From a virus (Duplodnaviria; Heunggongvirae; Uroviricota; Caudoviricetes), in the IMG/VR virus record IMGVR_UViG_3300032167_000057, positions 68,886 to 131,424 of that record: a stretch of 62,539 nucleotides of DNA. One strand, given 5' to 3'. The notes below the pieces were generated by a model that was not told the DNA's origin, made no database searches, and was given only the letters and a program-made list of their open reading frames with translations. This document shows positions 276-43,057 of this stretch, piece after piece. The first letter of the stretch is position 1. Each line of letters opens with the position of its first letter. The position numbers were made by a program, and so were the translations under genes.

Positions 276-670
276 AATTTATTCCTCCTCATTTGTAATG
301 CTGGGTCGTCAATGATATCTTCTAACATTAGTAAATTCCACTCCCAACTTGCTTCTCTTAAACTAATGCTATATATATGTTGATTTAGTATTGCATTTTG
401 AATCTCGGGTCTCACCTTCTTAGAAAAAGAATAATTGGTTAACACATAATCGCTACATGCTTCTATTGTGACTTCTTGACCGCATAACGCCAACATATAT
501 CTATTCATGACAAAAGGAACACCACCTAACACACCAGACTCATCTACCGCACCATAAAGACTTTCCAATTCTTTTTTGGATTTAACGCGATATTTTTTCC
601 CTACAAAGGGAGCAGAAGCTATTAACATAGTAATCTTATCCTTTCTTTTGTTTTCGATATAGTAAAGCAT
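269..670 (-). CDS. hypothetical phage protein (likely start 628)
   Basis: ORF track; SD-like AAAGGA before ATG 628; stop overlaps next start. Confidence 0.7.
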   Translation of the reverse strand: MLYYIENKRKDKITMLIASAPFVGKKYRVKSKKELESLYGAVDESGVLGGVPFVMNRYMLALCGQEVTIEACSDYVLTNYSFSKKVRPEIQNAILNQHIYSISLREASWEWNLLMLEDIIDDPALQMRRNKLC

Positions 671-962
671 TAGGAATCGGAATCGTCAGTGTAATTATAT
701 AATCGCCATTTGTTATGCTAGACAACATCTGGTGTTCGCTTATCTCGGTTACTAAGATACCCATATCATTAAATATTTCGTATCTTTCACCCCATATATC
801 ATGTATTAATTTTGCATGATATATTTTATTTACTAGAGACCTAGAAACCTGAAAATTAAATTCTTTTGGTAAATCTTTTATATCCATGTTATTTATATCC
901 TCGACAAAGCAGAGATTTCGGTATGTTGTTATTGATAATTTTATAATTTCCGTCTCGTACAC
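636..962 (-). CDS. hypothetical protein
   Basis: ORF track; co-oriented in tight operon. Confidence 0.55.
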   Translation of the reverse strand: MYETEIIKLSITTYRNLCFVEDINNMDIKDLPKEFNFQVSRSLVNKIYHAKLIHDIWGERYEIFNDMGILVTEISEHQMLSSITNGDYIITLTIPIPNALLYRKQKKG

Positions 963-1695
963 TCTCCAGAAAATCTGTTTTCTTTATATTTGTTATATAA
1001 ATTCCGTCACAATCAATTCTATATGTATTTTCTTCATCATAAGCATCATAAGTGCTTGAATTAGAAAAATAAGTTAATGTAAATTGAAATCGTTTCGGTA
1101 ATCTAATTTCTATTGCCATCTGTGTATTCTCCTCATCTTCTCTTCTGCTATCATAACCACATGAACAAAATTCATAACATATTCCGTCTTTATAAACTCC
1201 ATGATTATAGTAAGTTAATTCCCTTCCGCAGCACGGACAAGTTTTACATGGTGCGTGTGTTATGCGGATTTTAGAATGTTTGCGTTTCGGCTTTAAAGAA
1301 ATAAACATCTTCAATATCAATATTATAAACATAGCCACGCACATGATTGGTCGCCAGATAAATGACAGTAATGTACTAATAACACAAGCAAAAAACATGA
1401 GTATTGTTTCGCTTGCTGTTATATTATCATCACTTAATATATGTTTTAATGCAGTAATATCTGCTGTAAAAAAAGCAATACTACATTTTTTTGTAATCTC
1501 GTCCACCATTTCTTTAGGTAGTCCAATAACAGTACGCCTCTCTATTGGGTATAGTATTTTGATTTCACTTAACTTTGCAGCATACTCTTTTTCATCATCT
1601 GTTTTTATGACACAAATTCCTGCTCCATAGAACATACCAATTACTTCACCGCTTTTTCCTTTGTTTTCTCCTGATATAATCATTGCTCTTTCCAT
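889..1695 (-). CDS. hypothetical protein with hydrophobic segment and CxxC-PCC...CxxC cluster
   Basis: SD AAGGAGG; central hydrophobic stretch; Cys motifs. Confidence 0.65.
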   Translation of the reverse strand: MERAMIISGENKGKSGEVIGMFYGAGICVIKTDDEKEYAAKLSEIKILYPIERRTVIGLPKEMVDEITKKCSIAFFTADITALKHILSDDNITASETILMFFACVISTLLSFIWRPIMCVAMFIILILKMFISLKPKRKHSKIRITHAPCKTCPCCGRELTYYNHGVYKDGICYEFCSCGYDSRREDEENTQMAIEIRLPKRFQFTLTYFSNSSTYDAYDEENTYRIDCDGIYITNIKKTDFLESVRDGNYKIINNNIPKSLLCRGYK

Positions 1696-1734
1696 GTTTG
1701 TGTTCCTCCTTTTTTATCTTCACCTTTAAGGTAA

Positions 1735-1807
1735 TGACTCGACTTGGATTCGAACCAAGGTTTTCCGTTGGAGAAACGGATGTCTTAAACCACTTGACTA
1801 TCGAGCC
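1735..1807 (-). tRNA. tRNA-Glu (anticodon CTC), no encoded CCA
   Basis: Minus strand folds as a cloverleaf: acceptor GGCTCGA/TCGAGTC, D-arm GTC..GAC, anticodon arm TCCGT-TTCTCCA-ACGGA, T-arm CTTGG-TTCGAAT-CCAAG. Confidence 0.93.
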
Positions 1808-1859
1808 AGAGCCTACTCAGGTTGTTCATTCCCTTTCGGCTGTCGTTGAGGTAAATATA

Positions 1860-1973
1860 CTATGGCATAACACCGTGGTAAGCCTCTTCGTATTCAGTTT
1901 CGCTTACGAATTCACAATAACCGACGTTTGGGATATACCCCATATATCCATAAGATAAGTAATAACCTTTCAT
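1860..1973 (-). CDS. small hypothetical protein, 37 aa (MKGYYLSYGYMGYIPNVGYCEFVSETEYEEAYHGVMP)
   Basis: SD AGAAAGGA just upstream of ATG 1973; fills gap in operon; below ORF-track cutoff. Confidence 0.65.
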   Translation of the reverse strand: MKGYYLSYGYMGYIPNVGYCEFVSETEYEEAYHGVMP

Positions 1974-1984
1974 ATGTTTCCTTT

Positions 1985-2245
1985 CTAGACAATCCAGCCT
2001 CTTGTAGGATAATCTAATTCTTCTAATTGTATATCTCTTGATTCCTCAACATCTCTTATCGCGGAAATTAAGGTAGAGGCAAAATCATAGTTGGTCGTAT
2101 AATAAAGCGATGGCTTGACGAACTCATCATTATACGTTTGTCTTTGTCGTTCCCTTTCTTTTTGCTTGCGCGTCTGAAATTTTGGGTCTGGTATAGACGG
2201 TTTAGAAAATATAGAATAAGGGATTTTATAATTAAACCAATTCAT
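1985..2245 (-). CDS. hypothetical protein
   Basis: ORF track; SD GAGGTG; start abuts upstream stop. Confidence 0.6.
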   Translation of the reverse strand: MNWFNYKIPYSIFSKPSIPDPKFQTRKQKERERQRQTYNDEFVKPSLYYTTNYDFASTLISAIRDVEESRDIQLEELDYPTRGWIV

Positions 2246-2667
2246 TATTTCACCTCTTCTTCCTTATCTTTACGGTAACAAAAAAGTGGATTAGCATACA
2301 TTTCTATGTATCTATCCACTACATCTATTACCTCTTGTGTTGGTAAACAATATTCTATATGAGACGAAGAAGGCTTAAACAATATTTGTAAACTAAGACG
2401 TTTATGAGTTCTGTTATATACCAAATACCACCCGCCTAATTCCCTTGCTTCAGCAAGACGAGTTATTAATAAAGATGAATCAATTGTAATACAATCCATT
2501 TCTTGCAATCGCATAAACATTTCATATATCTGTTTCTTTTCCTTTTTAGTTTTAGGTAGCAAAGCTATGAAATTGTTGTAGAATGGATAAATGCAATGTT
2601 CAACAGTTAATGCATATAATGCATCTGCCACCGCCATATGAAAGCCATTATATTTATGTTTTTGCAT
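2245..2667 (-). CDS. hypothetical protein
   Basis: ORF track; SD GGAGGG. Confidence 0.65.
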   Translation of the reverse strand: MQKHKYNGFHMAVADALYALTVEHCIYPFYNNFIALLPKTKKEKKQIYEMFMRLQEMDCITIDSSLLITRLAEARELGGWYLVYNRTHKRLSLQILFKPSSSHIEYCLPTQEVIDVVDRYIEMYANPLFCYRKDKEEEVK

Positions 2668-2871
2668 TTAATTTCCCTCCTATTTTTCTCCGAATATTAA
2701 GATAAATAAGAGCAAAGCCACACCTACATATATAGTCATCATGTTACATTCTCCTTTCCATGTTATCTTTTGCGTATTCTAAATCGAGCATAATTGTGGC
2801 GATTTCCATTGCGTCATTTTCATTTGGTTTTCTGCCATATACATGCTCAAATAAAAGTTCTGCTATGTGTT

Positions 2872-3324
2872 TCAAATTTGCGTTTCCTTTCCGTTTCCGT
2901 TTTTATAAACTCTGCATATTAATTGTGGCTGATTATATTTGTTTATGCATTGACGCATAATATTGTATATGCCGTTTCTTATAGCTGGAAAGTTTTTATA
3001 TAGGAAATCACGTTGTTCCTTGTAGATTTGTATGGATAAATAATCTAATCTTCCATTAAATTCCCAGATAAATGTACTGTCTGAATTTGCCTTGACTTCA
3101 TCTAAAGAATATAAGAAAGGCAAAACAATGATTCTTATGTCTATTCCTATATTACCCAGTTGTTCTAGTAGTTCAATTAATACGTTCCGTTCTTCCACAG
3201 TGTGAGGTTTTAAATTAATCGAAGCGAAATTTAAACCTCTTCTTCCGTTTAAACATAAGTATTCGGACAGTTGCTGTATTAATTCTTTCGTTCTATTCAT
3301 TCCACGCTCCGTTATAATGAACAT
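2872..3324 (-). CDS. hypothetical protein
   Basis: ORF track; operon context. Confidence 0.6.
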   Translation of the reverse strand: MFIITERGMNRTKELIQQLSEYLCLNGRRGLNFASINLKPHTVEERNVLIELLEQLGNIGIDIRIIVLPFLYSLDEVKANSDSTFIWEFNGRLDYLSIQIYKEQRDFLYKNFPAIRNGIYNIMRQCINKYNQPQLICRVYKNGNGKETQI

Positions 3325-3838
3325 TAATCACACAGTCATCCATTACATTAAAGTCTCTATTTTTATCCATAATCATGGAAACTTCTTCGCCTAAATGCCA
3401 GTCGTTTCCCTCAAAAGTCCAGTCATTACCAGCATAATCTGTTACGGTAACGGTTTCCTTTGTGTGGTTGATTTCCGTTATAATTCCATTTAAGGCATAT
3501 AATTCCGTTTGGGCTTTGCCTTCAAATTCTTCTATAATATATGGTTTTCCCTTTGAGGAATCCCAGATAACCATTACTTCCGTTCCATCAGTAAATTCTG
3601 GTGGGTCAAATTCCGTTAGGTCTAAGAATCCATCTTTCACAGTTGGTGTGATTATACCTACTGCTGCTGTGGTTTCATGCCAAGTACCATGATACGAATA
3701 CATCCCGTTTACATTTCCGTTACGGACTTCCGTTTCAAAGTCAGCACATCCACAAAATGCGAATGCGAATACAATAAAAATACCTGCTAATATGTAAAAT
3801 AATATTTCTGGCGGTGTTGGTGTTGCGTGTCTTGTCAT
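3293..3838 (-). CDS. membrane-anchored or secreted hypothetical protein
   Basis: N-terminal hydrophobic helix ILFYILAGIFIVFAFAFCGC followed by acidic soluble domain. Confidence 0.65.
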   Translation of the reverse strand: MTRHATPTPPEILFYILAGIFIVFAFAFCGCADFETEVRNGNVNGMYSYHGTWHETTAAVGIITPTVKDGFLDLTEFDPPEFTDGTEVMVIWDSSKGKPYIIEEFEGKAQTELYALNGIITEINHTKETVTVTDYAGNDWTFEGNDWHLGEEVSMIMDKNRDFNVMDDCVINVHYNGAWNE

Positions 3839-10499: not shown

Positions 10500-11621
10500 T
10501 AATTTTGAGTCGCCTTACACAGCGATGTGTATTGAATAACAAGGTGAACCTATAAATATAGGGTGTACATTACACGTTTAGGAGTTGTAGGAAATGACGA
10601 CTAGGTAATGTGCTAACTGGGAAAATCTAAATATATAACAATACTATGCGAAATATTTTACAAGACAGGATGTGATTATATAAGTTTATATAAAACATAT
10701 GGAATTTATGGAATAAGAAATAAAACCAATAATAAAGTCTACGTTGGTAAGACAGAAATGAATTTTGGTGATAGAAAAGATTGTCACTTTACAAGTCTTC
10801 GTGGTGGATATCATATTAATCCACACCTACAAAAATCTTTCAATAAATATGGAGAAGATAACTTTGAATTTATTGTATTGTACGAATGTAAAGATGGCGA
10901 AGATACTCATATAGTTAATAAGTTGGAACAAAAATATATTAAATTATATAAAGATAAAGGTCTTGCCTATAATATTGGAGATGGTGGCGATGGTGGTCAT
11001 AATCTAGGAAAACATTTATCAGAAGAAACCAAAAGAAAAATTGGTAATAAAAATAGAATTAATATGACAGGCCGTAAAGCCACTAATGAAACTAAAAAAA
11101 GGATGTCTGAATCACAGAAGAAACGATTTAAAAATCTTTCCGATGAAGAACGAAAAGAATACGGCAGACAAATCTCTGAATATGCTTCTGGATATCAATG
11201 GTCAGCAGAAGCAAAGAAAAATTTTTCAAAAATCCAACAAACTAAACCTAATGGTGCAAAATATGACGTAGAAACAGTAAAAGAAATAAGACGCTTACAT
11301 AAAGAAGAAAACTTAACATACACAGAAATTTCAAATCTACTAGATATACCAAGACCTGCTGTGTATTTAATTGCTACATATAGAAGATGGAAACATATCG
11401 CATAGTCCATCAAGACTGTTATATACAAGATAATCCAGTGCCAAGCTAAAATGGTGACATTTTAGAAGGTCTAACGAGCAAGATATACCGTCTCATTGAG
11501 ATGATGAAATCTGTATGATTAAGGTGAAATTCCTTAATCAGAAGTGCCTTGCCCTCATTATTATGAGGTGATGATGTGCTCTACTCCCCTAATAAATATC
11601 GGGAAACCGAGGGTATAAAGG
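10500..11621 (+). mobile_element. group I intron in RNAP gene, with GIY-YIG homing endonuclease
   Basis: Exon ends in U; P1 CGAU/GUCG (10509-12) with U.G pair; P7 GAGCA(11476)/TGCTC(11577); ends in G; joined frame reads QQNAID|KAKGIICKPMPAEW. Confidence 0.9.
10680..11405 (+). CDS. GIY-YIG homing endonuclease with NUMOD3-like repeats (track start 10758 misses the GIY-YIG motif)
   Basis: In-frame upstream extension gives YGIYGIRNKTNNKVYVGKT; HLSEETKRKI and ATNETKKRMS repeats; likely ATA start after AGGATGTGA. Confidence 0.88.
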   Translation: MSLYKTYGIYGIRNKTNNKVYVGKTEMNFGDRKDCHFTSLRGGYHINPHLQKSFNKYGEDNFEFIVLYECKDGEDTHIVNKLEQKYIKLYKDKGLAYNIGDGGDGGHNLGKHLSEETKRKIGNKNRINMTGRKATNETKKRMSESQKKRFKNLSDEERKEYGRQISEYASGYQWSAEAKKNFSKIQQTKPNGAKYDVETVKEIRRLHKEENLTYTEISNLLDIPRPAVYLIATYRRWKHIA

Positions 11622-12479
11622 AAAGCCAAAGGTATTATTTGTAAACCAATGCCCGCCGAATGGAAACGTATCAAGCCAAATGAAATTTTGGAGACCGATG
11701 AAGCGTGCACTATATTACAAAAACAATTTAACCAGCGTATAGTTGCTGATAAATATCCATATTTCTTTATCTATAATTATCTTTCATTAAAACAAGAATT
11801 TGATAGATATTTTAAAACAATGAATTATATTTGTTATGATGAATTATCTGTTTTCTTATCTGATTTAATTTCTAAATATAAAAATCATGAATTTTTATCC
11901 CCAGTAGAACAAAATTTTCTAAATAATTATTTTAAAAATTGCCCAGTTTCTTATGCCCCTTCAATAATGAATAGACTTTGTTGGCAATTAGAACAAAAAT
12001 TAGGAAAAACCAAAAAAGATAATAAAGAGTTTGATTATGCATTATTATTGTCTGAAAATAAAATAAATAAACGTATTAAAAAAGAAGTCGAAGCAATTTA
12101 CGACGAATATAAGCGACGTTCTGTTGAGTGTCAAGTTCGTTTACAAAGACATCAAATTACTAAAGACGAGTATACTGCTTTTTATACTTTAACTCTGGAT
12201 TGGTTTAAACAACAAATTTTTAGTATTTGTAATAATGCCGAAACAGTAACGGATGCGTTAATTGATTTGTGTTACACCCATTCAAATTCAAAACAGTTTG
12301 TTTGGGATGTATGTGGTGAACAAATCATTCGTAATTTATTAAATAGACATAATAATTTAATTTCTTATCCAGTACAAGACCGTGAAGGTGAAATTGAATT
12401 TTGGGGAGAAAAATTTAGTATGCGTACTATTAATTATGATAATTATATGGATATGTCAGAGGAGGAAAAAAATGGGTAA
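11622..12479 (+). CDS. yonO: YonO-like RNA polymerase, exon 2 (spliced product about 930 aa)
   Basis: Frame open from 11622 and in phase with exon 1; no SD before track ATG 11649. Confidence 0.88.
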   Translation, partial: KAKGIICKPMPAEWKRIKPNEILETDEACTILQKQFNQRIVADKYPYFFIYNYLSLKQEFDRYFKTMNYICYDELSVFLSDLISKYKNHEFLSPVEQNFLNNYFKNCPVSYAPSIMNRLCWQLEQKLGKTKKDNKEFDYALLLSENKINKRIKKEVEAIYDEYKRRSVECQVRLQRHQITKDEYTAFYTLTLDWFKQQIFSICNNAETVTDALIDLCYTHSNSKQFVWDVCGEQIIRNLLNRHNNLISYPVQDREGEIEFWGEKFSMRTINYDNYMDMSEEEKNG

Positions 12480-22363: not shown

Positions 22364-22854
22364 ATGGCAACAGCAAATAAAGTATTTTTCGGATTAGACA
22401 ATGTTCAGGCTGTATTTTCTAAAGAAGATTGTTCTTACGCTTCTTTCTCAAAATTAATGTATGATACAGCTGTTGAAAAGTTCGAAGGTGGTATTACTAA
22501 AGAACAGGCTAACAAGAAAATTAGAGAGGTTATGTTTGAAATTATTGGTCTTCCACAGGACGCTTCAAACAGAGAAATTAAGAAAGCTCTCAAATCTACT
22601 GCTGTTAGAGAAGCTGTATTTGCAGTTATCGAAGAGACAGTTGAAGATTTGTTAGTAACAGGATGGGGTAATGACCCGTTCTTCAAACAGTTTGTTGAAT
22701 ATAAGTCAGTTGCTGACGGTGATACAAACGAATTCTATACAAAAGATGAAGTAATCTTAACTTTATCTGAACTTGCTGGTAACCATCATAACTTGATTAG
22801 ACAGAGATTGGGTGCTGGTAAGGCATTTAATGTTCATACTTCATGGTACGGGGT
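22364..22854 (+). CDS. major capsid protein, exon 1
   Basis: Position in head module; ends HTSWYG-GT at predicted splice site. Confidence 0.85.
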
Positions 22855-23254
22855 TAGAAATATAGCTCCCCTTGCAGTGTAAACTGCTTGGCAATAATTA
22901 ACGCATTGAAATGCTGGAAAACCCTAAAGGTAATTAAGCTACAACGTAATGGTGAAATAAACATAGGCGTGAATGCGGTGAAAACAGAAAAAATTAATTA
23001 CATGGGAACGAGGTGTAAACCCCTGTTCTTTTTTTAATGGGTAATCAGCAGGTAAGTTCCGAATAGGAAAAACCTCAACGACTATTCCTTTAAGGAAGTA
23101 GGGTCATAAGCGATTGATGACTCGAAGTGGTGCGCCCCTCAATCGAGGGTGAAGATATAGTCTAATCTTTAATGAAAATTAAAGGGTTTTAATAACCGAC
23201 ACGGAGTAGCGTCCGCAGATAATATTATATAAGTTATCGTGTTAAATAAAAATG
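22855..23254 (+). mobile_element. ORF-less group I intron (400 nt) in major capsid gene
   Basis: P1 GGGGU/GCUCC; AATGCTGGAAA, AATCAGCAGG, TCAACGACTA(23080) and AAGATATAGTCT(23158) core motifs; ends in G; joined frame SWYGV|KIYAEYELFMAGRVDW. Confidence 0.93.
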
Positions 23255-23879
23255 AAAAATCTACGCAGAATATGAACTCTTCATGGCTGGTCGTGTAGAC
23301 TGGGCAGAATTCGTTCAGAAAATCTATGAAGCATATGACAAGAAAGTAAATGACATGCTTTATGGTGCATTTACTAACATTGGTGATTCTTTACCAGCTG
23401 GTACACAGTGGGTTAAGACATCTCCATTGACAGCATCTACAAAAGATACATTTGATACATTGGTTGAAGATGTACAGATGGTTAATGGTTCTGATGTTGT
23501 TATCATGGGTACACGTTCAGCTTTAGCTAAGTTAAGTTCTTTAGATGAAATTGACTGGGTATCTGATGCTATGAAGCAGGAAAGATATACAACTGGCAGA
23601 CTTGGCTTCTATCAGGGTATTACATTATTCGAAATCCCTCAGGCTTTCGTTAAGAATGATACAACTCAGAAGCTCGTTGATAATACTAAGTTATATATCA
23701 TGCCAGTAGCTGATAACAAGTTTATCAAGATGTTCAACGAAGGTGAAACACAGATTAAAGAAGTATCTGATGGTAACACAAACGTTGATAAGACTATTGA
23801 ATACGAATTCCAGACCAAGATGGGTGTGGCTGCTGTAATCAATAGACTGTTCGGTATCTGGAATATCGAAACACCGTAA
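23255..23879 (+). CDS. major capsid protein, exon 2 (spliced product 371 aa)
   Basis: 491+625 nt = 372 codons in frame; HK97-like C-terminal half. Confidence 0.85.
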
Positions 23880-30112: not shown

Positions 30113-31066
30113 ATGGCTACAAGAAGTAAACGAATTACTATGTATGACGCGGAAAAATTAAAGTTAATTAATCCTGAGTCATTAAAAATGATTCATAAAT
30201 ATAAACAGGATATGAGTATCAGAGAACTCTCTCCTAAAACTGTATACAATTATTTAACTGATTTAAACCAATGGTTAATTTATGTATATGATAATCAGTT
30301 TAATCAGAGCGTATTAGAACTGAACGAGGATGACATTACAGAGTTTATCTATTGGTGCAAAATCCAAGGAAATAACACTGAACGTATTAAACGTAGAATG
30401 TCTTCTATTTCAGCGTTTTATATATATTTACATAAAAAACGCTTGATAAAGGAAAACCCGATGACTTTTATTGACCGCCCTAAAAAGGGAAGTCCAGTTG
30501 TCACACAAACGTTTTTAACACTAGAACAAGTTGAATTAATGAAACAAAAATTACAGGAGCATGGAGATTTGCAGTTGCAAACCTATGCTCTTTTTTCATT
30601 ATCTACTATGGCTCGTGTAAATGCTGTTGCTAATTTAAAATGGGAACAAGTAGATTTAGAACGTCGTACTTGTACTAATGTATTAGAAAAAGAAGGTAAA
30701 TTGGTTGATTTATTCTTTTCTGAAGAAGTGCGTGATTTATTAATTGCAATTAAGGAAAAACGTGCTAATGAAGGAATTGATGACCACGGATGGGTATTTA
30801 CTACTCCACAAGCAACTGCTACTACTCCTATTCAAAATAGTACATTGAACGAATGGTGTAAAAAGATTGGAGCAATGATTAATGTACCAACTTTACACTG
30901 TCACGATTTTAGGCATTCTGGTGCGACTTTGTTAAAGAATTTGGGTATGCCATTAGAAGACGTATCTGCTTTATTAAATCATAGTGGTACTGATGTCACT
31001 AGAAAATTTTATATCAAAGAAGATACGAGTCGTTTATCTGCCGCAAAAGACCGATTTAAAATTTAA
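30113..31066 (+). CDS. tyrosine recombinase/integrase within tail module
   Basis: ARVNAV (R), EKEGK (K), HDFRH, LNH, FY catalytic residues; N-terminal SAM-like domain. Confidence 0.92.
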   Translation: MATRSKRITMYDAEKLKLINPESLKMIHKYKQDMSIRELSPKTVYNYLTDLNQWLIYVYDNQFNQSVLELNEDDITEFIYWCKIQGNNTERIKRRMSSISAFYIYLHKKRLIKENPMTFIDRPKKGSPVVTQTFLTLEQVELMKQKLQEHGDLQLQTYALFSLSTMARVNAVANLKWEQVDLERRTCTNVLEKEGKLVDLFFSEEVRDLLIAIKEKRANEGIDDHGWVFTTPQATATTPIQNSTLNEWCKKIGAMINVPTLHCHDFRHSGATLLKNLGMPLEDVSALLNHSGTDVTRKFYIKEDTSRLSAAKDRFKI

Positions 31067-33101: not shown

Positions 33102-35459
33102 ATGTCTACAACAATAGGCCCTAGTGGTGGTTTTGATAAAGCGTTAGATGATATTTTGGGTAAGAAATTTGACCAATCATTTGATAAATTTATAAAGAAA
33201 CAGGCTCAAAAAGAATATACTGTGCCTACCAATATCAATGTTCGTCTTGTAGACAATATTGAAAAAGTACTTGAAGAAGAACGTAAAGAAATTGATGCTC
33301 AGATTCAACACTTTAAGAAAACTATTCAGTCAAATATTAATTCTTATACAAGACACGCTGGTTCGTTGCCACAATCTGTAAATAGATGGATGGGGCGGCA
33401 AAGCAATCAAGAGGATTTACGCAAATCAATAGCTCAAGAATCTGAAGCAGTCTACGGTAGAGCAACACATTATAAACATGATAATTTAAATGCGGAATTA
33501 AAAGCCGCTATTGAAGAACGTACTAAATTAATACGTTATTTACAAGCTCAAGACGACCAGATAAATAATATTAATTATGCTGGTAAAACGACTAAAGGAC
33601 AAATCGCAAAGGCGGCCGCTGAAGAAGAAGAAGCTTTAAACCGCAAATATTTAGCGATTCAGAGAATATATGAAATCGAGCAAAAATATCGTAAACAGTT
33701 ACATGCAAATGACCGACATGCTTTAGGTGTTGAACAATATCAAGCTGGTAGGCAGTCTATTGAACAATACCGTGGTCAAGCGGCACAACATGGTGTCAGT
33801 GCTTATGAGGCTTTGCTCAAATCTAGAGTGGATAGTGCGCAAGGAATGTTTACTCAGTTAGCGCCTCATTTACAGGCCGCTGAGTCTGATGCAGAACGTG
33901 GTCAAATATTGGCTGATTTTAAACAGGGTGTTGAAACTGCAAATTCATTAAGTAAACAAGCACTTGATGGTTTATCTGCTGTTGCAAAAGGTATTGCTCA
34001 AGTTCAAATACCTGACGAAGTAATTGATACTGAAGCAGTAAATATTAGTACAGATGAAATTCAAGAATCTATGCAGGCTACTACTGCTACAGAACAGAAT
34101 ACACAAGCAATAAAAGAGAATATTGAAGCTAAACAAAAGTTAGATTCTCAAGAAGATGAATTAATTGCTGACCAATCGGCTTTAAAATCTGCTATTGATT
34201 CGGCCACTAAAGAATTACAAGACCAAGGACAAGAATTGGCCAATACTGCTCAACAATATAAAAAGGTTGGAGATGCGGCTGATGAAGCGAATTCTAGCAT
34301 ATTGAAACAGACCAAAAAAAGCTCTAGGTCTGGTAATGGGACAGGCGGTGGGTCTGGTTCTGGTAGTACTGGTAAAAAAGAATTAAGTGATAAACAGAAA
34401 TATCTTGCGTTGGTTTCTAAAGAAACGCGTGAGTTAAAGAATTTATTACGTTTAAAAGTAGAATTGGCGAACACTTCTTCTACTGATAAAAATACAATTA
34501 AGACATATGAAAAATTAATAGATTTTTCTGAACAACGTCGTACTGTTTTACGAGCAGAGGGTCAAGCATTATTAGCTAATGTTGATGCAGAGGAACAAGA
34601 AAATTTAGCTCTGCAACGTAAAGCAAAATTACAAGAAGCTTCGATTTCTTATACTCAAAAACTAGCATTAATATCTGCCAAAAAAGAAGATAAATCTATC
34701 AATGCCGCTAATGCTGAATTGGATAAAGCTTTAAAAAAGCAACAACGGTTTGGCACAGTAGTTAAACAGCAAATTGATAATTATCAGATGGCGGCAGATG
34801 CAATACAAGAATTATTATCGACACAAAAATTATTGGGTAGTCCAAGTATTGATACCGCAAAATTAAATTCTGAAGGTATTGCTACTTTTACCCATAAAGT
34901 AAAAACTTCAAGTAACGAAGTACAGACTTGGGCCTTTACTTGGGACGCGGCCACTGGTCAAATATATCAAAACACAAAACGAATTACCACTGTTGGTAGT
35001 AGATTAGAAAAATTCATGGATAGTCTCCGAGGCAAATTTACTGCTTTGGGGACTTATTTATTGAGTTTCGCAAGTTTTTATGATATTGTAAACGCTTTTC
35101 GGTCAGGTATTACAACTATACGTGAGTTGAATACCGAATTAGGTAATATGCGAAAAGTAGCAGATGAATCATTGTCTGTTTTGCAAGAATATCAACTAGC
35201 GGCTCATGATATAGCTTTTGAATTAGCTTCTACTTCTAAACAGGTAATGAGTTCAACCACAGACTTCTTACGTCTTGGCTATTCGTTACAAGAGGCAGCT
35301 TCACTTGCTCAAGATGCTAACATTTATGCAAATGTTGGTGATATGCAAATAGATGAAGCCACTGAACATATGATTTCATCTGTTCAAGCTTGGAAAAGTG
35401 AATTTAACAGTGCTGTTGAAGCATCAACTGCTTTGATTGATAAGTATAATGAAGTGGGT
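33102..35459 (+). CDS. tape measure protein, exon 1 (786 codons)
   Basis: Helical Ala/Gln/Lys-rich; TP901-type core LRLGYSLQEA...IDKYNEVG. Confidence 0.88.
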
Positions 35460-36930
35460 AAACAAATTATTGCCCAAACATACAGTAATGTATGGTGCTA
35501 CTTAATAGTGGCATAGTAGATAACTATATCGGTTAAAAAATGGGGACATTTTAGACCGAGGAAAGACTTAATGTTTACTATCGTCAAAGGGAGGCGATAG
35601 TTATTTCAAAAAAATTAGATTTAACAAATCAAAAATTTGGTAAATTGTTAGTCATTGAAAAAACAAAATCTCCTAATAAAAAACATAAAAGAATATATTG
35701 GTTGTGCCAATGCAATTGTGGAAATACATATGTTACAGATACTACTTCTTTAACTTCTGGTGCTACAACTCAGTGTTTAGAATGCGCTCATAACGCATCT
35801 GGTATCGGTAGAAGAAAAGATTTAACTGGACAAAAATTTGGTCATTTAACTGTTGTAAAAATGTTATATAATTACAACAATACTAAACGAACCAAATGTT
35901 TGTGTGATTGTGATTGCGGTACGATTAACCATTTAACTTCTCCAGATTCATTGGCTCGTGCAACAGAAAATACATCTTGTGGATGTCAAAAAGCAAATTA
36001 TGTTAGAAAATATTGTGCGCGTGACATAGATGGACAACGTTTTGGAAAATTGATTGTATTAGAAACGATTTGGGATAATGGAAAACCTAAAGTACGTTGC
36101 AAATGTGACTGTGGTAATGAAATTATATTAAACAAAAATGATGTACAAAGTGGTCACACATTATCTTGTGGATGTTTACATAAAGAAGTTACATCAAAAA
36201 CAAATACAAAAGATTGGACTAATATCGTTTCTGATTATGGAGTAGAATTTATTAGTCAATCTAGACAGAATAAAGCTGGACAGTGGTTATGGTATTGTAA
36301 ATGTCCTATTTGCAATGATATATTTGAAGCTTTGCCAGCAAAAATTATGGGAGGTCATACTACATCATGTGGATGTAAAATTCAATCATCAGGTGAAAGA
36401 TTAATAAAAAAGACTTTAGATGAATTGAATATAAAATATATCCAACAATATAGTTTTAATGACAACGTATATAAATATAAATTAAAATTCGACTTCGCAT
36501 TATTAAATGATAATGACGAAGTTTTTTGTTTGCTTGAATATGATGGTAGACAACATTATGATTCAATTGAATTTTTTGGTGGAGAAGAACAATTTATAGA
36601 AACTCAAAAAAGAGATTTAATTAAAGATGAATATTGTAAAAATAATAAATTATTATTAATACGTTTACCTTATTATTTAACAACAGATGAAATTCAAGAA
36701 AAGATAGTAAACATTATTTATCCGTAACGACTACAGGGTATATATGGTAACATATGTACTGAAGTTATCCACCCTACTCTTCTGTTTATGAAGATAAGAG
36801 GGTGTAATATATAGTCTGGACTCACGCTATAATCTAACAAAATATGAAACGTGAGAGTTAGCCAGAAATGACTAACCGCTATATTTATATATAGTCAGTA
36901 ACTTAGAATATAAGTGAAAGTAACAGAACG
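35460..36930 (+). mobile_element. group I intron 1 in TMP gene, with endonuclease ORF
   Basis: P1 GGGU/GCCC(35472); P10 AAUUAUU/AACAAUU; P7 GACTA(36729)/TAGTC(36812); ends in G; joined frame DKYNEVG|NNYAITSADIG. Confidence 0.92.
35603..36727 (+). CDS. intron-encoded putative homing endonuclease (CxCxCG repeats plus Vsr/DUF559-like nuclease domain)
   Basis: Repeated DLTGQKFG.L.V...CxCDCG units; C-terminal KFDFA...EYDGRQH; likely ATT start after GGGAGG. Confidence 0.8.
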   Translation: MSKKLDLTNQKFGKLLVIEKTKSPNKKHKRIYWLCQCNCGNTYVTDTTSLTSGATTQCLECAHNASGIGRRKDLTGQKFGHLTVVKMLYNYNNTKRTKCLCDCDCGTINHLTSPDSLARATENTSCGCQKANYVRKYCARDIDGQRFGKLIVLETIWDNGKPKVRCKCDCGNEIILNKNDVQSGHTLSCGCLHKEVTSKTNTKDWTNIVSDYGVEFISQSRQNKAGQWLWYCKCPICNDIFEALPAKIMGGHTTSCGCKIQSSGERLIKKTLDELNIKYIQQYSFNDNVYKYKLKFDFALLNDNDEVFCLLEYDGRQHYDSIEFFGGEEQFIETQKRDLIKDEYCKNNKLLLIRLPYYLTTDEIQEKIVNIIYP

Positions 36931-37641
36931 AACAATTATGCAATTACTTCAGCAGATATCGGTTCAGCCATGGAACGTTCTGCTGCCGCTTTAAAAGCTG
37001 GTGGTAATACACTTAACGAATCAATTGCGTTAATTACTGCTGGTAACCTTATACAACAAGATGCTGATACTACTGCGAATGCTTTAAAGGTTATGTCACT
37101 GAGAATTCGTGGCAGTAAAGCAGAATTAGAAGCCATGGGCGAAGAAACTGATACTCTTGCTGATTCTACTTCTAAACTGCGTGATGAAATTAAAGCATTA
37201 ACTGGTGTAGATATTATGCTGGATGATGATACGTATAAATCAACCACACGTATTATTCAAGAAATTGGTGCAGTTTTTGATAAACTTACTGATGTTTCTC
37301 AGGCTACAGTTTTGGAAAAACTTGCGGGCAAGACACGTTCATCAACAGTAGCTGGTTTGCTTGAGAATTATGAAGTTATTGCTCAGGTAATGGAAACAGC
37401 AGCTAATGCTGAAGGTTCGGCCCAAGAAGAAATGAGCCGATATATGGAAACAATTGATGCTCACTATAATCAACTATTGACAAAATGGGCTCAATTTTGG
37501 GATGTTACCTTAGACACCGATGCAGTTATTGCCATTATAGATGCTTTAACCAATTTGTTGGATAAAGGTATTGAGGCTGGTGGTTTATTAGGTATATTAG
37601 GCGATTTGCTTCCAGCTTTGGCGATATTTAAAGGCAGCGGT
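36931..37641 (+). CDS. tape measure protein, exon 2 (237 codons)
   Basis: In frame with exon 1; TALKVMSLRIRG and EKLAGK TMP-core motifs. Confidence 0.85.
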
Positions 37642-38051
37642 AGACCTAAAATGTTTGGTCTCAAATATGCCGCTATTATTATGTGCCCTTATAGATATAT
37701 AAGTTTTCATAATAAGCTTATTGAAATACAATAAGTAAAAATGCTCGATATGGTCTGAATAGACTTGTGTTTATAATTACACAACTGGGAAGCGGGTTAA
37801 AATTATAGTACTCTCCTATTTCAGTGATGGAATAAGGTTCGTGAAAATCTATAATCTCTCGTGGTCAGCAGGTAAGCTTCTCTCTGAGAAGAAACCCCAC
37901 TGTAATGAAATGGGCATTACACATTAGATGAAACGCTGTGTGTAAAATAGACATTCGAAACTACACCAAGCACGATGGTTAATTATAAGTAGGAATCTAT
38001 CTTCTACTTTCGTGTGTGCGAAACTTGTTTTACTCAAGTCGATAGAAAAGT

Positions 38052-38081
38052 AAAAAAAGACACCGTGTTGTACAGTGTCTT
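38052..38081 (-). terminator. terminator of antisense cargo gene
   Basis: Minus strand GACAC-tgtacaacacg-GTGTC-T7, 16 nt after cargo stop. Confidence 0.7.
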
Positions 38082-38097
38082 AATTATTGATATATAC

Positions 38098-38604
38098 TTA
38101 GAAATTACTTCCGCATTTATTACAATGCCATTGTTTACCGATTTTACCACTACCAAAACCAAACAAACTAAATGAAGTCGCTCGTCCAACCATAGAAATC
38201 TTCTTAGTATCTTTTGATTTACAATATGGACATTCTGCTGAGTCTGGAATAAATTGTGCCAATGCTTGCAAGGATTGGGTCATTCCTTCTCTTTCAGGTA
38301 TATATTCTCTTGGTACTTCTTTGTTATCTACGATTTCAGAAATTAAGTGTATTACATCAAAAATATCTAGTTCTATTACTGAATGAATTTTTGCTTCTAT
38401 TTTATCAGTATTTTCTGAAGAAGATTGACCATGTTTTAATATAAATGCAAATTCATCAGTTAAATCAAAATCAACCCCTTTAATATTACAAATGGTATTT
38501 TTATTTTTAACAAGTAAACGTATTAATGGATATCCACAATGAACACAATTTTCAGTTTGGTCAGAAATTTCTTTTTTACATTCTGGGCATATAATTAAAC
38601 TCAT
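38098..38604 (-). CDS. double zinc-ribbon protein, antisense within TMP intron 2
   Basis: CPEC..CVHCG N-terminus; CPYC...CNKCG C-terminus flanking a Gly-rich hydrophobic patch; SD AAGGTGG. Confidence 0.85.
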   Translation of the reverse strand: MSLIICPECKKEISDQTENCVHCGYPLIRLLVKNKNTICNIKGVDFDLTDEFAFILKHGQSSSENTDKIEAKIHSVIELDIFDVIHLISEIVDNKEVPREYIPEREGMTQSLQALAQFIPDSAECPYCKSKDTKKISMVGRATSFSLFGFGSGKIGKQWHCNKCGSNF

Positions 38605-38632
38605 ATACTATTACCACCTTATTTTTATGTTT

Positions 38633-38662
38633 AATATACCACATTTTTAAAGTGTTTCGCAA
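38633..38662 (-). promoter_or_regulatory. sigmaA-type promoter of cargo gene
   Basis: Minus strand TTGCGA-18 nt-TATATT with TGn extended -10. Confidence 0.6.
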
Positions 38663-38680
38663 CTTTAAATATATAGTTTG

Positions 38681-41600
38681 ATATTACGAATAATAAACGG
38701 ATTAAAAGACTCAGGTTTGAGTGGTAATATTGTCAAACTTGGTCAGGAATTTCAAAAATCGGGTAAATCCGCAGAATATTTAGCAGATGTTACAGGATTA
38801 ACAGTTGAGCAAGTTACCAAATTAACTAAGCTAAAACCTAATTTAGTTTCTTTTGGAAAAACTTTAGGTACAATAGCTGTTGCATATGTAGCTATGTGGA
38901 CAGCATCAAAAGTTTGGGATGCTGTTAATACTACTGTTGACGAAGCCCAAGAAAAAATTGATAATGTTAATTCTAAAATTTCTACGCTTAATAAGGAAAT
39001 TCAAAAGTTAGAAAGTATTGGTTACCGTAACGAGGCTCAAAATAATCGTTTAAATGCTTTGCAAAGAGAATTGGAGTTGCAAGAAAGTTTATTAGCGATT
39101 GAACAAAAACGATATTATCAAGAATTAACTGGAAATCAATTTACTGATAAATTTGATTCAGATAATTTATACACCAAATATTATCAAGAAGCGCCTTATC
39201 TCACTGATGGTTTTGCTGAACAGAATGAAGTTGGAATGATGAAACAACGTTATTCTGTTAATGAGCATAAAATTGCAGAATATGATGAGAAAATTGTCAG
39301 CACTGCTAATGATAATAAGAAAGCTAAATTAATTGAAAAACGAAACAAACTGTTAGAGAAACAAGTTGATTTAGCTGGTCAATTAGCAGAAAAAGAAGTA
39401 GAATATCTTGATTATTATACACAAGCTCAAGAAGCAGTTGATAGTGGCCTATTATATGGTAGTGATTTAGAAGATGCTAAAGAATTAGCTTCTTTATGGA
39501 AAGCGGCTTATGAAGATATCAGTTCAATTAGCACTGAAATTCAAAAAGCCAATGATACTTTTGATTATTCTGCTCAGATAGCTGGTATTTTAGGTAAAGT
39601 TGATTATAAAGATTTAAAAGACCCATTAATAGAATTAGCGAAAAATGGTGATTTATCGGTCAACTTACTTGAAACTGAGTATACAGCTTTGACAGAAGCG
39701 TTAGAAGCTGCTGGTATTGAAGCGTCTGAATTATATTATTATTTATTAAATTTAGCTGACCCTCAAATGGCTCAGCGTACTAAAGATATTGCCGCTTTAA
39801 ACACACGTGTTGGTATAGATAGTAATATTGATAGTGCTGGTGAAGCGCAAGCCCATTCTTTATTATATAATGCTGGTGCTTATACTGATGAAGGGTTAAC
39901 CGCATGGGCAACAATTCAAACAGAAATTGATACTTCTAATTGGACTGTTGAAGATATTGCTGCTGCCATCCAAGAAAAACTGGACGGACAGGTTATCGAA
40001 CCCGAAATCAATGTTACGCCTACTATTACTTCTTCTGTTCAAGAAATTGCAAAACAGCTTGAACCGCAAATGTCGGCTTTGGAGGAAGTATATAATTCTA
40101 TCTTCAATGGTGAAGGTGGTTTTAATGCTGATATAATTGACCATTCTATGATGGCTAATTTAGAAGCATCCTTTAATCAACTTGAGGAAGATTTGGGAGT
40201 CACTTTTGATTCACAAGCGCTTGAAGATTTCTTTAGGGTTCTGGGTGATGGTGTTTATACTGCCGATGAAGCTCAAAATGCTTTCAATGATTTAGCAACG
40301 GCTTGGTTTTATAGCACAGACGTTTTAGACCATTTGAGCAAAGAAACTGCTGGTGCTATTACACAACAGTTAGAATTAATGGGTGTAACTAATGCTGCTG
40401 AAGTGGTACAAACCCAATTAAACAATATAACAGCAGAAAAGAAATATGCTGCTCAAGTAGGTAAAGAATTAGCAGAGGCTACTTATTCAGAAGCTTATGC
40501 TTTTATTTCTGATGAAATTGCTCTTGGTAATGCAGATAAGAGTTTATATACTTATTATTTAACAAAACTAGCTGTTAATGGTGCTACGGTTAATACAATA
40601 GATGATTGCCGAAATGTATTGGCATTAGCTAACGCGGCTGATATTTCTGGTGAGGCACTTGATCAACTTGCTTCTTTGATGGCTTCCTATGATAAAGCAA
40701 TGGCACAAGGTAATTATACCGGTGCTACTGTTATTGCTAATGAAATTAATAAAATGAAAGCTAAAGTTGATGCGGAAATTGCCAACTTTAAACCTACTGA
40801 AATTAATTGGTCTCCTGTTGTTGATTCCGCTGGTAAAGCAGGTAAAGATGCTGGTGAAGAACTTAAAGACCAGTTAGAACAGGAACTTAATGACCTAGAT
40901 TCAGTTATTAGTTCTGTAACCAATATTATTGGTGATAGAATTGATGATTTACAGAATCAAATGGATGCAGCTATTGATGCATTAGAAGCAGAACGTGACG
41001 CGGCAATTGAGGCTTTAGAAGATGAGAAAAAGGCTCTTGAAGACGCAGTAAAAGCAAAACAAGACCAGATAGATGCTATTCGTGAAGCTCGTGAAGAAAG
41101 GTCTGCTGAACTAGATTTACAACGCAAGGAATATGAACTAGAACGTTTACAGAATCAAAGAACACTTTTAATCTATAGTGACTCTAAAGGTTTTCATTAC
41201 GAGAACGATTCTAAGGAAGTAAGAGATGCTAAAGAAGCTGTTGATGAAGCTAAAGAAGAAATTGAAATTCTTAAAATTGAAAAAGAAATTTCTGCTTTGG
41301 AAGATTCCATAGATAACATTGATGATAAAATCGAAGAAGTCAATGACCACTATGATAAACTTATTGAACAAACCGAGCAATACTGGCAATCTCTCATTGA
41401 TAGCCTAGAGGCATATAAATCACGTTGGGAAGAATTAGCAGAACTTAAAGAGCAAGCCGAATTCCAAAGACAATTAGAAGAACTTGGTTTATCTTCTGTT
41501 GATATTCTCAATATGAGTGAAGAGGCTTTCCAATCATTTAAGACACAATATTCAGAAGCTCTTAACGCTTATTTAGCCGCTTCAGGTGCTACGGAAGAAG

Positions 41601-43057
41601 AATTAGCTAACATGGCTGGTTCTGTTGATAAATTAGGCAGTTCCTCTTCTACTGCTTCATCTGGTATTAAATCTGCCGCAGGCGCTACGCAAGAATTAAA
41701 AGACAGTGCTCAAGGCATTTCAGATGAAATGTCCAATACTGTAACTGCTATTGAAGGTTTAAATTCAGTAAGTCTAAAAGGTTTGCAATTAACTTTTACT
41801 AATTTGATTAATACAATCCAATCAGTTTCAGAAGCCATAGGCGCGTTATCTACTGGTGCTACTGAAAGTGGAGTTGGTGGATTGGTCGGCGCTATTTCTG
41901 CATTAAATGCTGTTAATTTAGGTGGGGATGGAGAAGGTATTATTGATAAATTCAATAAACTGAAAGAGGCAGTATCTCAGGTTAGTGCGGCTATTACAGG
42001 CGGTGCTGGTGCAGCTGATACTGGTATAGATTTAACCGATAGAGGTTTTCCATCTGCTACTGGTCAGTCTACTACATCTGGTTCTGATGGTAGTGCTGGA
42101 TTAATTGGTGCTATTGAAGAGCAAGGTCAAATTGCCGAAACAGTTTTATCAGAGGAAATTCCTAGATTCAATGGTGAAGAAGAATCATTATTAGGTGCGG
42201 TAACAGATGTTACTACCGCTATTGCTGGTTCTGGAGACTCAGAAGAAGGTTCTGGCGAAGAAATAGATGCTACTAATCTTATGGGTGCAATTGAGGCACA
42301 ATATGATAAAGCCTTAGAAGTTCTACCAGATGAGAAATCCAAATTTGAAGAACTGCTAGAAGTAATTAAATCATGTGTTACTGAGTTAAATAATATGGTA
42401 ACTGCAATGCAGAATATGTCAGAAATGGAGTTTAATTTTGGTGGTGGCTCTACTGGCGGTGGATATAAAGGTACTGTTGGTAATGCTTTTGCTAAAGGTA
42501 CAATGAATATCAGAAGTTTACCTATTACTGGATATAAAGGTTTGCCACATGATGAGAAAAATGCGATGCGTTCTGAGTATGGTCAACCAGAATTGACAGT
42601 ATATCCAGACGGTACAACTGAACTCACAAGTAAACCTGTAATGTCAGACTTACCGAAAGGTACTGTAATTTTCAATGAAGAACAAACAAAGCGCATTATG
42701 CATAACCAAGGTACTGTTCTTGGTAAAGCTCATGCGGAAGGTACACTTCCTGCTGGTCTTATCCCGCTTGAAGCTGTTGACCCAGCAAAATATAAGATGC
42801 TGTCTGGTTCTTCTTTGGTTAAATTAACTGGTGTTGCTTTAGAAAAAGCTTTTGATAAACAAAATTCAGTATTAACTGAAACGGTTAATCAGGCATTGAA
42901 TTTACGTACAAATACTCCTGCTAAAGCACCAATTCATATGGGTGACATACAGTTTATTTGTAACGGAATTACTGCTGACCAAGTTGAAAAACAAATTAGC
43001 GGACATTTTGAAGGGCTGTTTACAGACGCTTATCAAAAATCAATGACCCGTCAATAA
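38681..43057 (+). CDS. tape measure protein, exon 3 (spliced product about 2480 aa)
   Basis: 1458-aa coiled-coil ORF without a good SD; C-terminal AFAKGT and GQPELT motifs. Confidence 0.8.
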   Translation: MLRIINGLKDSGLSGNIVKLGQEFQKSGKSAEYLADVTGLTVEQVTKLTKLKPNLVSFGKTLGTIAVAYVAMWTASKVWDAVNTTVDEAQEKIDNVNSKISTLNKEIQKLESIGYRNEAQNNRLNALQRELELQESLLAIEQKRYYQELTGNQFTDKFDSDNLYTKYYQEAPYLTDGFAEQNEVGMMKQRYSVNEHKIAEYDEKIVSTANDNKKAKLIEKRNKLLEKQVDLAGQLAEKEVEYLDYYTQAQEAVDSGLLYGSDLEDAKELASLWKAAYEDISSISTEIQKANDTFDYSAQIAGILGKVDYKDLKDPLIELAKNGDLSVNLLETEYTALTEALEAAGIEASELYYYLLNLADPQMAQRTKDIAALNTRVGIDSNIDSAGEAQAHSLLYNAGAYTDEGLTAWATIQTEIDTSNWTVEDIAAAIQEKLDGQVIEPEINVTPTITSSVQEIAKQLEPQMSALEEVYNSIFNGEGGFNADIIDHSMMANLEASFNQLEEDLGVTFDSQALEDFFRVLGDGVYTADEAQNAFNDLATAWFYSTDVLDHLSKETAGAITQQLELMGVTNAAEVVQTQLNNITAEKKYAAQVGKELAEATYSEAYAFISDEIALGNADKSLYTYYLTKLAVNGATVNTIDDCRNVLALANAADISGEALDQLASLMASYDKAMAQGNYTGATVIANEINKMKAKVDAEIANFKPTEINWSPVVDSAGKAGKDAGEELKDQLEQELNDLDSVISSVTNIIGDRIDDLQNQMDAAIDALEAERDAAIEALEDEKKALEDAVKAKQDQIDAIREAREERSAELDLQRKEYELERLQNQRTLLIYSDSKGFHYENDSKEVRDAKEAVDEAKEEIEILKIEKEISALEDSIDNIDDKIEEVNDHYDKLIEQTEQYWQSLIDSLEAYKSRWEELAELKEQAEFQRQLEELGLSSVDILNMSEEAFQSFKTQYSEALNAYLAASGATEEELANMAGSVDKLGSSSSTASSGIKSAAGATQELKDSAQGISDEMSNTVTAIEGLNSVSLKGLQLTFTNLINTIQSVSEAIGALSTGATESGVGGLVGAISALNAVNLGGDGEGIIDKFNKLKEAVSQVSAAITGGAGAADTGIDLTDRGFPSATGQSTTSGSDGSAGLIGAIEEQGQIAETVLSEEIPRFNGEEESLLGAVTDVTTAIAGSGDSEEGSGEEIDATNLMGAIEAQYDKALEVLPDEKSKFEELLEVIKSCVTELNNMVTAMQNMSEMEFNFGGGSTGGGYKGTVGNAFAKGTMNIRSLPITGYKGLPHDEKNAMRSEYGQPELTVYPDGTTELTSKPVMSDLPKGTVIFNEEQTKRIMHNQGTVLGKAHAEGTLPAGLIPLEAVDPAKYKMLSGSSLVKLTGVALEKAFDKQNSVLTETVNQALNLRTNTPAKAPIHMGDIQFICNGITADQVEKQISGHFEGLFTDAYQKSMTRQ

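Follow-up and report, generated by a model that had tools for sequence, protein, structure and literature searches.

What interrupts the tape-measure protein (TMP) gene of a large phage for 1039 nt, and how can a gene of opposite orientation lie inside the gap? The locus is part of a 62,539-nt stretch of DNA (the window), which covers positions 68,886 to 131,424 of the IMG/VR virus record IMGVR_UViG_3300032167_000057 (Caudoviricetes). The record is complete, comprising 131,424 bp with direct terminal repeats, and the window is its right-hand 62.5 kb. Four tyrosine recombinases are encoded by the record, and the host of the interrupted gene is probably a temperate, SPbeta-like phage of 131 kb. 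The gap at positions 37642-38680 of the window was considered a likely group I-type intron (TMP intron 2), whose interior would form a tolerant slot for an autonomous unit on the minus strand. This reading was based on the anatomy of the gap, the interruption of the same TMP site in diverged relatives, pairings that changed together between lineages, a variable gene content and a protein motif continuous across the predicted junction.

The TMP gene was present in three pieces on the plus strand. Exon 1 (33102..35459) and exon 2 (36931..37641, translation ending ...AIFKGSG) matched consecutive parts of one PHROGs family, the tape measure family phrog_4211, with E values of 1e-19 and 6e-29, respectively. 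The third piece, exon 3 (38681..43057, starting ILRIING), had no PHROG match and no meaningful Pfam match. It was assigned to the TMP because exon 2 and exon 3, when joined, aligned in a single segment (one high-scoring segment pair) to uninterrupted TMP homologues of 2150-2320 aa. The first gap, TMP intron 1 (35460..36930), was bridged exactly by the unsplit TMP of phage Sundance, residues 639-848 of which aligned up to position 35459 and which is continuous (residue 848/849) over 35459/36931. This intron is of group I type, is preceded by U, ends in G and shows an S-like AUAUAGUCUGG near 36810. On the same strand it carries an open reading frame (ORF) of 360 aa (35645-36727) for an HNH homing endonuclease, which matched phrog_559 at 8e-43. 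Intron 1 was absent in the related locus L020 and comprised about 310 nt without an ORF in L021, forming a series of presence, ORF-less form and absence. The Rfam model RF00028 gave no match on the intron 1 stretch.

The second gap showed features of an intron at both ends. The frame of exon 2 ends at GGU (37639-37641) and then continues for 31 codons into the gap until a stop at 37735-37737. It resumes in phase at 38681 with AUAUUACGA, translated as ILRIING. A U precedes the 5' splice site and the last base, 38680, is a G. P1 is formed by the last six bases of exon 2 (37636-37641, AGCGGU) and 37669-37674 (GCCGCU) and comprises 6 bp with a U.G pair (37641/37669) at the splice site. An extension of 5 bp (37642-46 with 37657-61) is stacked on P1. 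Directly 5' of the P1 guide, the P10 guide at 37664-37668 (AAUAU) pairs with the first five nucleotides of exon 3 (38681-38685, AUAUU). P1 hairpin and guide together span 37636..37674 on the plus strand. An earlier interpretation made from the letters alone (the sequence-only reading) had described a frame break after KGSG with resumption in phase, these P1 and P10 pairings and an intron of about 1039 nt, and all of this was recovered as described.

The predicted spliced junction is ...AAAGGCAGCGGU|AUAUUACGA..., encoding KGSG|ILRI. Where the window has this junction, three unsplit TMPs (P0008, P0009 and P0012) show a continuous K[ND][SY]G-[IL]TKI. The predicted join would restore the motif G-[IL]x[KR]I, found unbroken in these proteins, and this restoration provides indirect support only for a joining of the exons. 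Exon 3 has no good Shine-Dalgarno (SD) sequence or start upstream and no conserved start. At the ends of intron 2, neither direct nor inverted repeats were detected.

The same TMP site was interrupted in at least four diverged lineages. Homologous elements occurred at this site in L020, L021, L006, the L-type loci and L092. In the window lineage (W), the 1-kb gap and its antisense ORF recur in two close relatives, L020 and L021. L006, whose TMP is about 46% identical in the aligned N-terminal part, has a gap of 1978 nt. The L-type comprises about 30 viral and metagenomic loci, including L027, with gaps of 2792-4201 nt. One L-type copy lies on a 1.5-Mb contig and is therefore probably part of a prophage. 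The gap of L092/L093 measures 7082 nt. All complete elements have a terminal G and an in-frame join. Megablast of the region against the phage collection and a pattern scan of genome contigs gave no match, and a scan of viral contigs with the exon-2 protein gave no relatives.

The guide pairings differed in sequence between the lineages and were maintained. In comparison with the window pairings, L006 has P1 CGAAGGU/GCCUUCG and P10 AAAUAU/AUAUUU, and the L-type has P1 CUGGGU/GCCCAG and P10 AUUGU/ACA[GA]U. In the window, L006 and L027, the intron has a contiguous P10 and P1 guide 27-30 nt downstream of its start, with a different sequence each time. The P1 extension changed in the same manner (AGACC/GGUCU versus AGGGU/ACCCU), and P1, extension and P10 all covaried in L006 and L027. 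Shuffle tests were performed on the first 120 nt of the intron, with the junction fixed by protein homology and 20000 trials per lineage. The observed P1+P10 score was reached by 117/20000 shuffles for the window, 14/20000 for L006, 3/20000 for L027 and 60/20000 for L092. Chance seems only partly excluded by the window alone, and the case rests on the comparison across lineages. For L008-L012, L094, L096 and L014, the free scan for P1 and P10 had no discriminating power.

Since Rfam was silent, the ribozyme core was modelled by comparison. It occupies roughly the first 400-700 nt in every lineage, and the remaining sequence lies between the hairpins of the P9 region and the distant 3' splice site. 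P3 and P7 pair in four lineages with four different sequences at homologous places, and in the three lineages other than W the core is clear. The L-type has P3 CCGAC/GUCGG and P7 GAGCAU/GUGCUC, the latter resembling P7 of the RNA-polymerase intron in the phage of the window. L006 has P3 AUCACG/CGUGAU and a canonical P7 GACUA/UAGUC, and L092 has P3 AAAUCGU/ACGAUUU and P7 GAGUC/GACUC. In the window, P3 is AUGCUC/GGGCAU and P7 is AAUG/CAUU.

A structural model of the L-type was made from 23 distinct sequences. In this model, 97.6% of the cells were paired, compared to 36-46% when the partners were slid. P3, P4, P7, P8 and the joining strands were invariant. Nine pairs showed double changes, all in peripheral helices, and compensated variation was found in P2.1, H1, distal P6, inner P8, P9 and P9.1. 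An invariant core with a compensated periphery is the pattern expected of a ribozyme.

In the window, the ribozyme part comprises about the first 400 nt (P1-P9), and all of its elements lie on the plus strand. By RNAfold and manual reading, P2 was placed at 37676-83 with 37708-15, enclosing an inner hairpin at 37688-703, and P2.1 at 37716-23 with 37729-36; both are without covariation in the W lineage. P3 (37741-46 with 37912-17) occupies the homologous place in the L-type, L006 and L092. It encloses two extra hairpins, H1 (37752-65) and H2 (37765-84), followed by P4 (37785-88 with 37865-68), P5 (37792-96 with 37858-62), P6 (37877-91) and the 5' strand of P7 (37904-07). P8 (37918-23 with 37939-44) and, after J8/7, the tentative 3' strand of P7 (37952-55) were mapped by homology to L006 and the L-type. 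Two P9-like peripheral hairpins at 37971-38014 and 38019-38041 end the ribozyme part, and a hairpin AAGUAG...CUACUU of this region is kept in L006. The P4'-P6 (Q/P6) stretch UCAGCAGGUAAGCUUCU differs little from that of the intron at 22846, which is validated by Rfam. The helices P3 and P8, with 6 bp each, mapped well.

Two other structural proposals were rejected. An earlier reading of the core had taken R as AUUCGAAACUAC (37950-62) and S as AUAUAGUU (38671-78), with the ORF in the P8 loop. It was abandoned because the terminal G would follow 2 nt after P7 without a P9, the partner of P3 would lie inside the P1 loop and the 3' ends of the L-type are not conserved. Long-range stems that would close off the cargo, such as 38017-24 with 38654-61, scored no better than shuffled controls. 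The 3' strand of this stem at 38654-61 coincides with the -35 box of the antisense gene.

The antisense gene of the window forms a self-contained minus-strand unit. At 38662-38633, a promoter-like site was identified by sequence match (TTGCGA-18-TATATT with a TG extension). It is followed by the SD sequence AAGGTGG at 38620-38614, located 9 nt before the ATG at 38604. The ORF P0001 (38604-38098) encodes 168 aa with an N-terminal and a C-terminal zinc ribbon. An intrinsic terminator at 38081-38057 has a 10-bp stem with four GC pairs and a T-run on the minus strand only, and should therefore stop the antisense transcript and not TMP transcription. In this AT-rich stretch, 10 promoter-like sites were found versus 7.2 expected, which is not above chance. 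For terminator-like sites, 2 were found versus 0.5 expected, which is above chance. A promoter-like site and terminator of its own around a gene unrelated to the late operon match the definition of a moron at the sequence level only.

P0001 had no similarity to nucleases or transposases in searches with Pfam, PHROGs, PADLOC and protein fold, and no defence family was assigned to it either. Comparison to the LAGLIDADG, GIY-YIG, HNH, His-Cys and PD-(D/E)XK families yielded only zinc-ribbon Pfam families and folds. The AlphaFold (AF2) model reached a predicted local distance difference test score (pLDDT) of 78.5 and matched zinc ribbons or uncharacterised relatives only. The same result was obtained with Foldseek against PDB and AFDB and with a look-up in the ESM Atlas, which gave only generic zinc ribbons and uncharacterised relatives. 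The antisense unit of promoter-like site, SD sequence, zinc-ribbon ORF and terminator, free of nuclease and transposase, corresponded to the one outlined in the sequence-only reading. A nuclease seems to us less likely than a protein that binds nucleic acids in an accessory or regulatory role.

The protein belongs to a widespread and mostly viral zinc-ribbon family, which is defined here with 66 relatives. Its members have a conserved N-terminal CPxC...CxxCG ribbon, a very variable middle part and a conserved C-terminal CPYC...KQWHCNxCGSxF module with four invariant cysteines and a near-invariant H-C-N motif. Some members consist of the C-terminal module of 110 aa alone. At least one member lies in an unrelated, non-TMP bacterial context (L095), and the family is hence not exclusive to the intron. 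Within the TMP gap, a family gene is present in antisense orientation in nearly all lineages. Further examples among viral contigs and assemblies with prophages include L005-L008, L010-L013, L016, L017, L094 and L096. In most loci the gene directly adjoins exon 3, whereas it is located a few kb away in L011, L013, L016 and L017. Its near-constant presence and position suggest that, of all genes in the slot, it has probably resided there longest.

When the window was compared to L020 and L021, the identity profile showed ordinary mosaicism and no sign of a higher conservation of the intron than of its flanks. A mosaic block at 38230-39030 was 56-81% identical among phages that are otherwise 95-100% identical. 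Within this block lie the promoter of the antisense ORF and two thirds of the ORF itself (the N-terminal part), together with the 3' splice site and the initial 350 nt of exon 3, suggesting that these parts may have been exchanged as one module.

The cargo varied among the relatives from one ORF in the window to about 11 ORFs besides the zinc-ribbon gene in the 7.1-kb gap of L092. In L006, the zinc-ribbon gene is located in the 3' part of the gap. The L-type gaps contain 4-8 ORFs. Among the relatives, promoters were scanned in L027 only. After the core of L027, whose gap measures 2.8 kb, a sigma-70-type promoter with 12/12 consensus positions, TTGACA-17-TATAAT (1866-1894), lies ahead of the plus-strand cargo, consisting of a 112-aa coiled-coil ORF and a 185-aa ORF. 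Other L-type copies have a 207-aa gene or a DUF3800 gene of 259 aa in place of the latter. The minus-strand cargo of the L-type comprises the zinc-ribbon gene of 198-244 aa, a 309-aa gene in some copies and a 111-aa gene. A minus-strand promoter of L027 with 10/12 consensus positions, TTGACT-17-TATACT (4303-4275), extends across the 3' splice site. On the exon side, its -35 box TTGACT corresponds in reverse complement to the exon-3 codons AAG UCA AUG (K-S-M), and on the intron side its -10 box falls within the last 12 nt. One stretch is therefore TMP coding sequence, P10 neighbourhood and antisense promoter at the same time. The same arrangement of sequences is visible at other 3' ends of the L-type.

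In L092 (9899-16866 of ENA ERZ27287343 k141_320613), the TMP strand of the gap encodes a GmrSD_N protein with a PADLOC match to NsnA at 1e-38, a DUF3800 protein and a Bro-N/ANT antirepressor. Several small ORFs were also found in this gap. The zinc-ribbon gene of L092 (P0020, with 38% identity to P0001) is in antisense orientation next to the 3' splice site. The genes of defence type in L092 thus sit within the putative intron. Transposase domains were absent from P0001 and from the scanned cargo ORFs. The sequence-only reading had proposed a survey of the TMP site in related phages, and this survey revealed a conserved intron-like element with variable cargo in several diverged lineages. Its view that the intron interior provides room for a gene unit of opposite orientation, complete in itself, gained support from the homologous ribozyme-like RNA, the covarying P1 and P10 and the range of one to about 11 ORFs. 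Its suggestion that loss of the gene could be constrained fits the retention of the antisense zinc-ribbon gene in nearly all lineages. Expression of the gene in the lysogen and a damping of TMP by its antisense RNA, also suggested there, would be speculative additions to this view.

In locus L094, the TMP appears to be broken again downstream (646-3542 of a 159-kb contig). A Fic-domain gene (2129-3352) in TMP orientation and an oppositely oriented ORF of 250 aa are present in this second gap, which may represent another cargo-bearing slot.

Splicing, promoter use, timing of expression and protein function are inferred from the sequences. Late transcription would read through the whole gap, and the ribozyme at the 5' end would fold. 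Its guide would pair with the last six bases of exon 2 and the adjacent P10 guide with the first five bases of exon 3. After attack by guanosine, the terminal G (38680) would be brought in and the exons joined to ...KGSG-ILRI.... Between 1 and 7 kb would be removed in full across the lineages and an intact TMP restored. Like its counterpart in IStrons, the stretch that separates the core from the distant 3' splice site would be structurally tolerant. Cargo with host-type promoters could be expressed independently of late transcription, for example in the lysogen, as are morons. In the relatives, the stretch would be a swap site for accessory cassettes.

A wider proposal is tentative and we regard it with some doubt. 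An intron lineage fixed at one TMP site in SPbeta-like gut phages might act as a platform for accessory and defence genes. The peripheral 3' region might be a recombination hotspot that exchanges promoter-bearing cassettes (NsnA/GmrSD-like, DUF3800, antirepressor and others). The antisense zinc-ribbon protein, with a promoter overlapping the 3' splice site, might then be a control or maintenance factor that couples cargo expression in the lysogen to conditional splicing and tape-measure production.

Several observations weigh against a group I-type intron with intact splicing. A free scan of all U/G-bounded in-frame junctions in the window yielded other P1+P10 solutions of equal score, and these pairings alone are therefore not decisive. 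P1 of L092 has only 3 bp. The core assignment in the window rests on homology, without variation among the three W-type copies. P7 of the window has just 4 bp and the copies are identical there, which makes the assignment of P7 and P8 tentative. One or two extra hairpins between P3 and P4, present in all lineages, lie outside the textbook fold. RF00028 matched neither intron 2 nor L001, L027, L092 and L006, both at the gathering threshold and with E values up to 10. This miss carries little weight, as the same model was silent on TMP intron 1 and recognised a single intron in the whole window at the gathering threshold. A covariance model of the 3' half of the L-type (R1) scored 4.5 bits on the window intron, which is no match; the model is too lineage-specific for mapping the window core. 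Transcription must furthermore cross 1-7 kb of cargo, including converging units. Such gaps of up to 7 kb would be hard to splice out. Together with the weak P7, the silence of Rfam and the separate ORF given to exon 3 by gene callers in all relatives, they favour a TMP that is truly split into two or three genes for separate proteins. The gap would then be an intergenic accessory island and its 5' part a decayed intron remnant, at least in the window lineage. This is improbable. Pairings of a dead remnant would not be expected to track exon changes in independent lineages, as P1 and P10 do. The terminal G and the in-frame join were found everywhere, exon 3 lacks an SD sequence and a conserved start, and the junction restores a motif continuous in unsplit TMPs. 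The core strands are invariant while peripheral hairpins covary.

The zinc-ribbon protein might instead be the mobility or maintenance factor of the intron itself, for instance a homing endonuclease that escaped recognition or a regulator acting on splicing or by antisense. The element would then be a mobile intron of the ordinary kind, unusual only in its endonuclease gene, with the other genes of the relatives hitch-hiking. This explanation has a small but appreciable probability. It is compatible with the intron reading and changes only the sense in which the gene is cargo. The family gene is retained in antisense in nearly all lineages while the other cargo varies, in most of these it directly adjoins the 3' splice site, and in L027 its promoter straddles this site. 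The invariant Cys4 and near-invariant H-C-N of the C-terminal module point in the same direction, and antisense endonuclease genes are known from nuclear group I introns (PMC9548176). On the other hand, neither a nuclease family nor a nuclease fold was detected, the middle domain varies strongly, and the 110-aa module is all that some members have. The occurrence of a member outside TMP genes (L095) and the lack of a signature of an intron more conserved than its flanks also argue against a dedicated factor. Excision of the gap at the DNA level by site-specific recombination, as for the intervening elements in sporulation genes of SPbeta-like phages, would suit an SPbeta-like phage with four tyrosine recombinases. 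It is very improbable for a 1039-nt element that encodes no recombinase, has ends without direct or inverted repeats and carries boundary signals of RNA type (U.G, terminal G and guide pairings) that covary with the exons.

Group I introns of bacteria and phages are usually viewed as selfish, with no cargo beyond an endonuclease of their own or, in IStrons, a transposon. In ordinary phage introns, such as those in T4 td, nrdB and nrdD, a same-strand ORF of the HNH, GIY-YIG or LAGLIDADG type is the mobility gene and the only gene present. TMP intron 2 has several features in common with these T4 introns, with TMP intron 1 and with the 22846 intron, namely the interruption of an essential or late gene, the U.G pair, the terminal G, the ORF in a peripheral loop and the presence of several introns per genome. 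Unlike TMP intron 2, most ordinary phage introns are found by Rfam or by canonical R/S motifs. With phage morons and prophage defence islands, the element shares units of promoter, gene and terminator that lie among late genes and are unrelated to virion assembly. The NsnA/GmrSD-like, DUF3800 and Bro-N/ANT genes are typical of accessory and defence islands of prophages. Morons lie between genes, whereas the TMP island lies inside a gene and would be harmless only through RNA splicing.

The IStrons CdISt1 and BcISt1 are group I introns fused to an IS200/IS605 or IS607 insertion sequence (IS) element (PMC4227781). As in IStrons, the ribozyme is located at the 5' end and a kilobase-scale payload separates the P9 region from the distant 3' splice site in W, L006, L-type and L092 (PMC4227781). 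Both occur in a Firmicutes context, and insertion into a coding gene is made harmless by splicing in IStrons and would be so here (PMC4227781). Unlike IStrons, intron 2 has no TnpA/TnpB and no IS ends, and its payload consists of self-promoted accessory genes, partly on the opposite strand (PMC4227781). IStrons occur at many genomic sites, while the TMP element occupies one fixed homologous site in a phage structural gene (PMC4227781). The giant ND5-717 group I intron in mitochondria of hexacorals and corallimorpharians also acts as a gene container and houses several unrelated functional genes (PMC6545197). It differs in being an organelle intron with core mitochondrial genes on the same strand, without autonomous promoters, in the involvement of back-splicing in its removal and in the lack of variable cargo between close relatives (PMC6545197). 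L2066 group I introns of nuclear ribosomal DNA carry antisense homing-endonuclease genes and share with the TMP intron a protein gene opposite to the ribozyme strand (PMC9548176). Their antisense gene encodes a His-Cys box endonuclease for mobility, whereas the TMP gap has no recognisable nuclease and, in relatives, additional genes that are not for mobility (PMC9548176). Containers of this general kind are thus already known (PMC4227781, PMC6545197, PMC9548176), and the statement in the sequence-only reading that no system of comparable form had been described was too strong. Our literature search, with incomplete coverage, found no paper on a phage or bacterial group I intron with autonomous, partly antisense and exchangeable accessory or defence genes, which is absence of evidence only.

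Through the ribozyme, a slot inside an essential virion gene appears to be silent in phenotype, and it is filled with exchangeable, independently promoted genes, some of them recognisable as anti-phage defence. As the same slot holds up to about a dozen accessory genes in relatives, some defence-like, the intron may be regarded as a storage bay inside an essential gene, which is of interest to those who study introns or the accessory and defence islands of prophages. If splicing occurs as predicted, introns would join the sites of such islands, and the recurrent annotation of a split tape measure in large gut Clostridia phages would be explained. The element would also provide a natural case in which a group I ribozyme tolerates cargo of kilobase scale that is transcribed in both directions, and such a case would be useful for RNA engineering. 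A link of cargo transcription to late-gene maturation would be possible.

Further introns and features were observed elsewhere in the window. The intervening sequence at 10503-11648 lies in a gene ending at 10502, contains R/S-like motifs ACGAGCA ... UGUGCUC and a 215-aa ORF (10758-11405), and was not matched by Rfam at the gathering threshold. The compact intron at 22846-23184 was the only one in the window recognised by Rfam (RF00028, 79 bits, gathering threshold), and the phrog_4088 gene that it interrupts is present as two parts, 22364-22882 and 23283-23879. A tRNA gene is located close to the left end of the window, at 1735-1807 on the minus strand (Rfam, 60.9 bits). Genes for a tyrosine recombinase and a RuvC-like protein are present in the tail module just upstream of the TMP gene, as in Brevibacillus phage Sundance. 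Their site is at 99397-99909 of the genome, corresponding to about 30512-31024 of the window, and at 912-1865 of L020.

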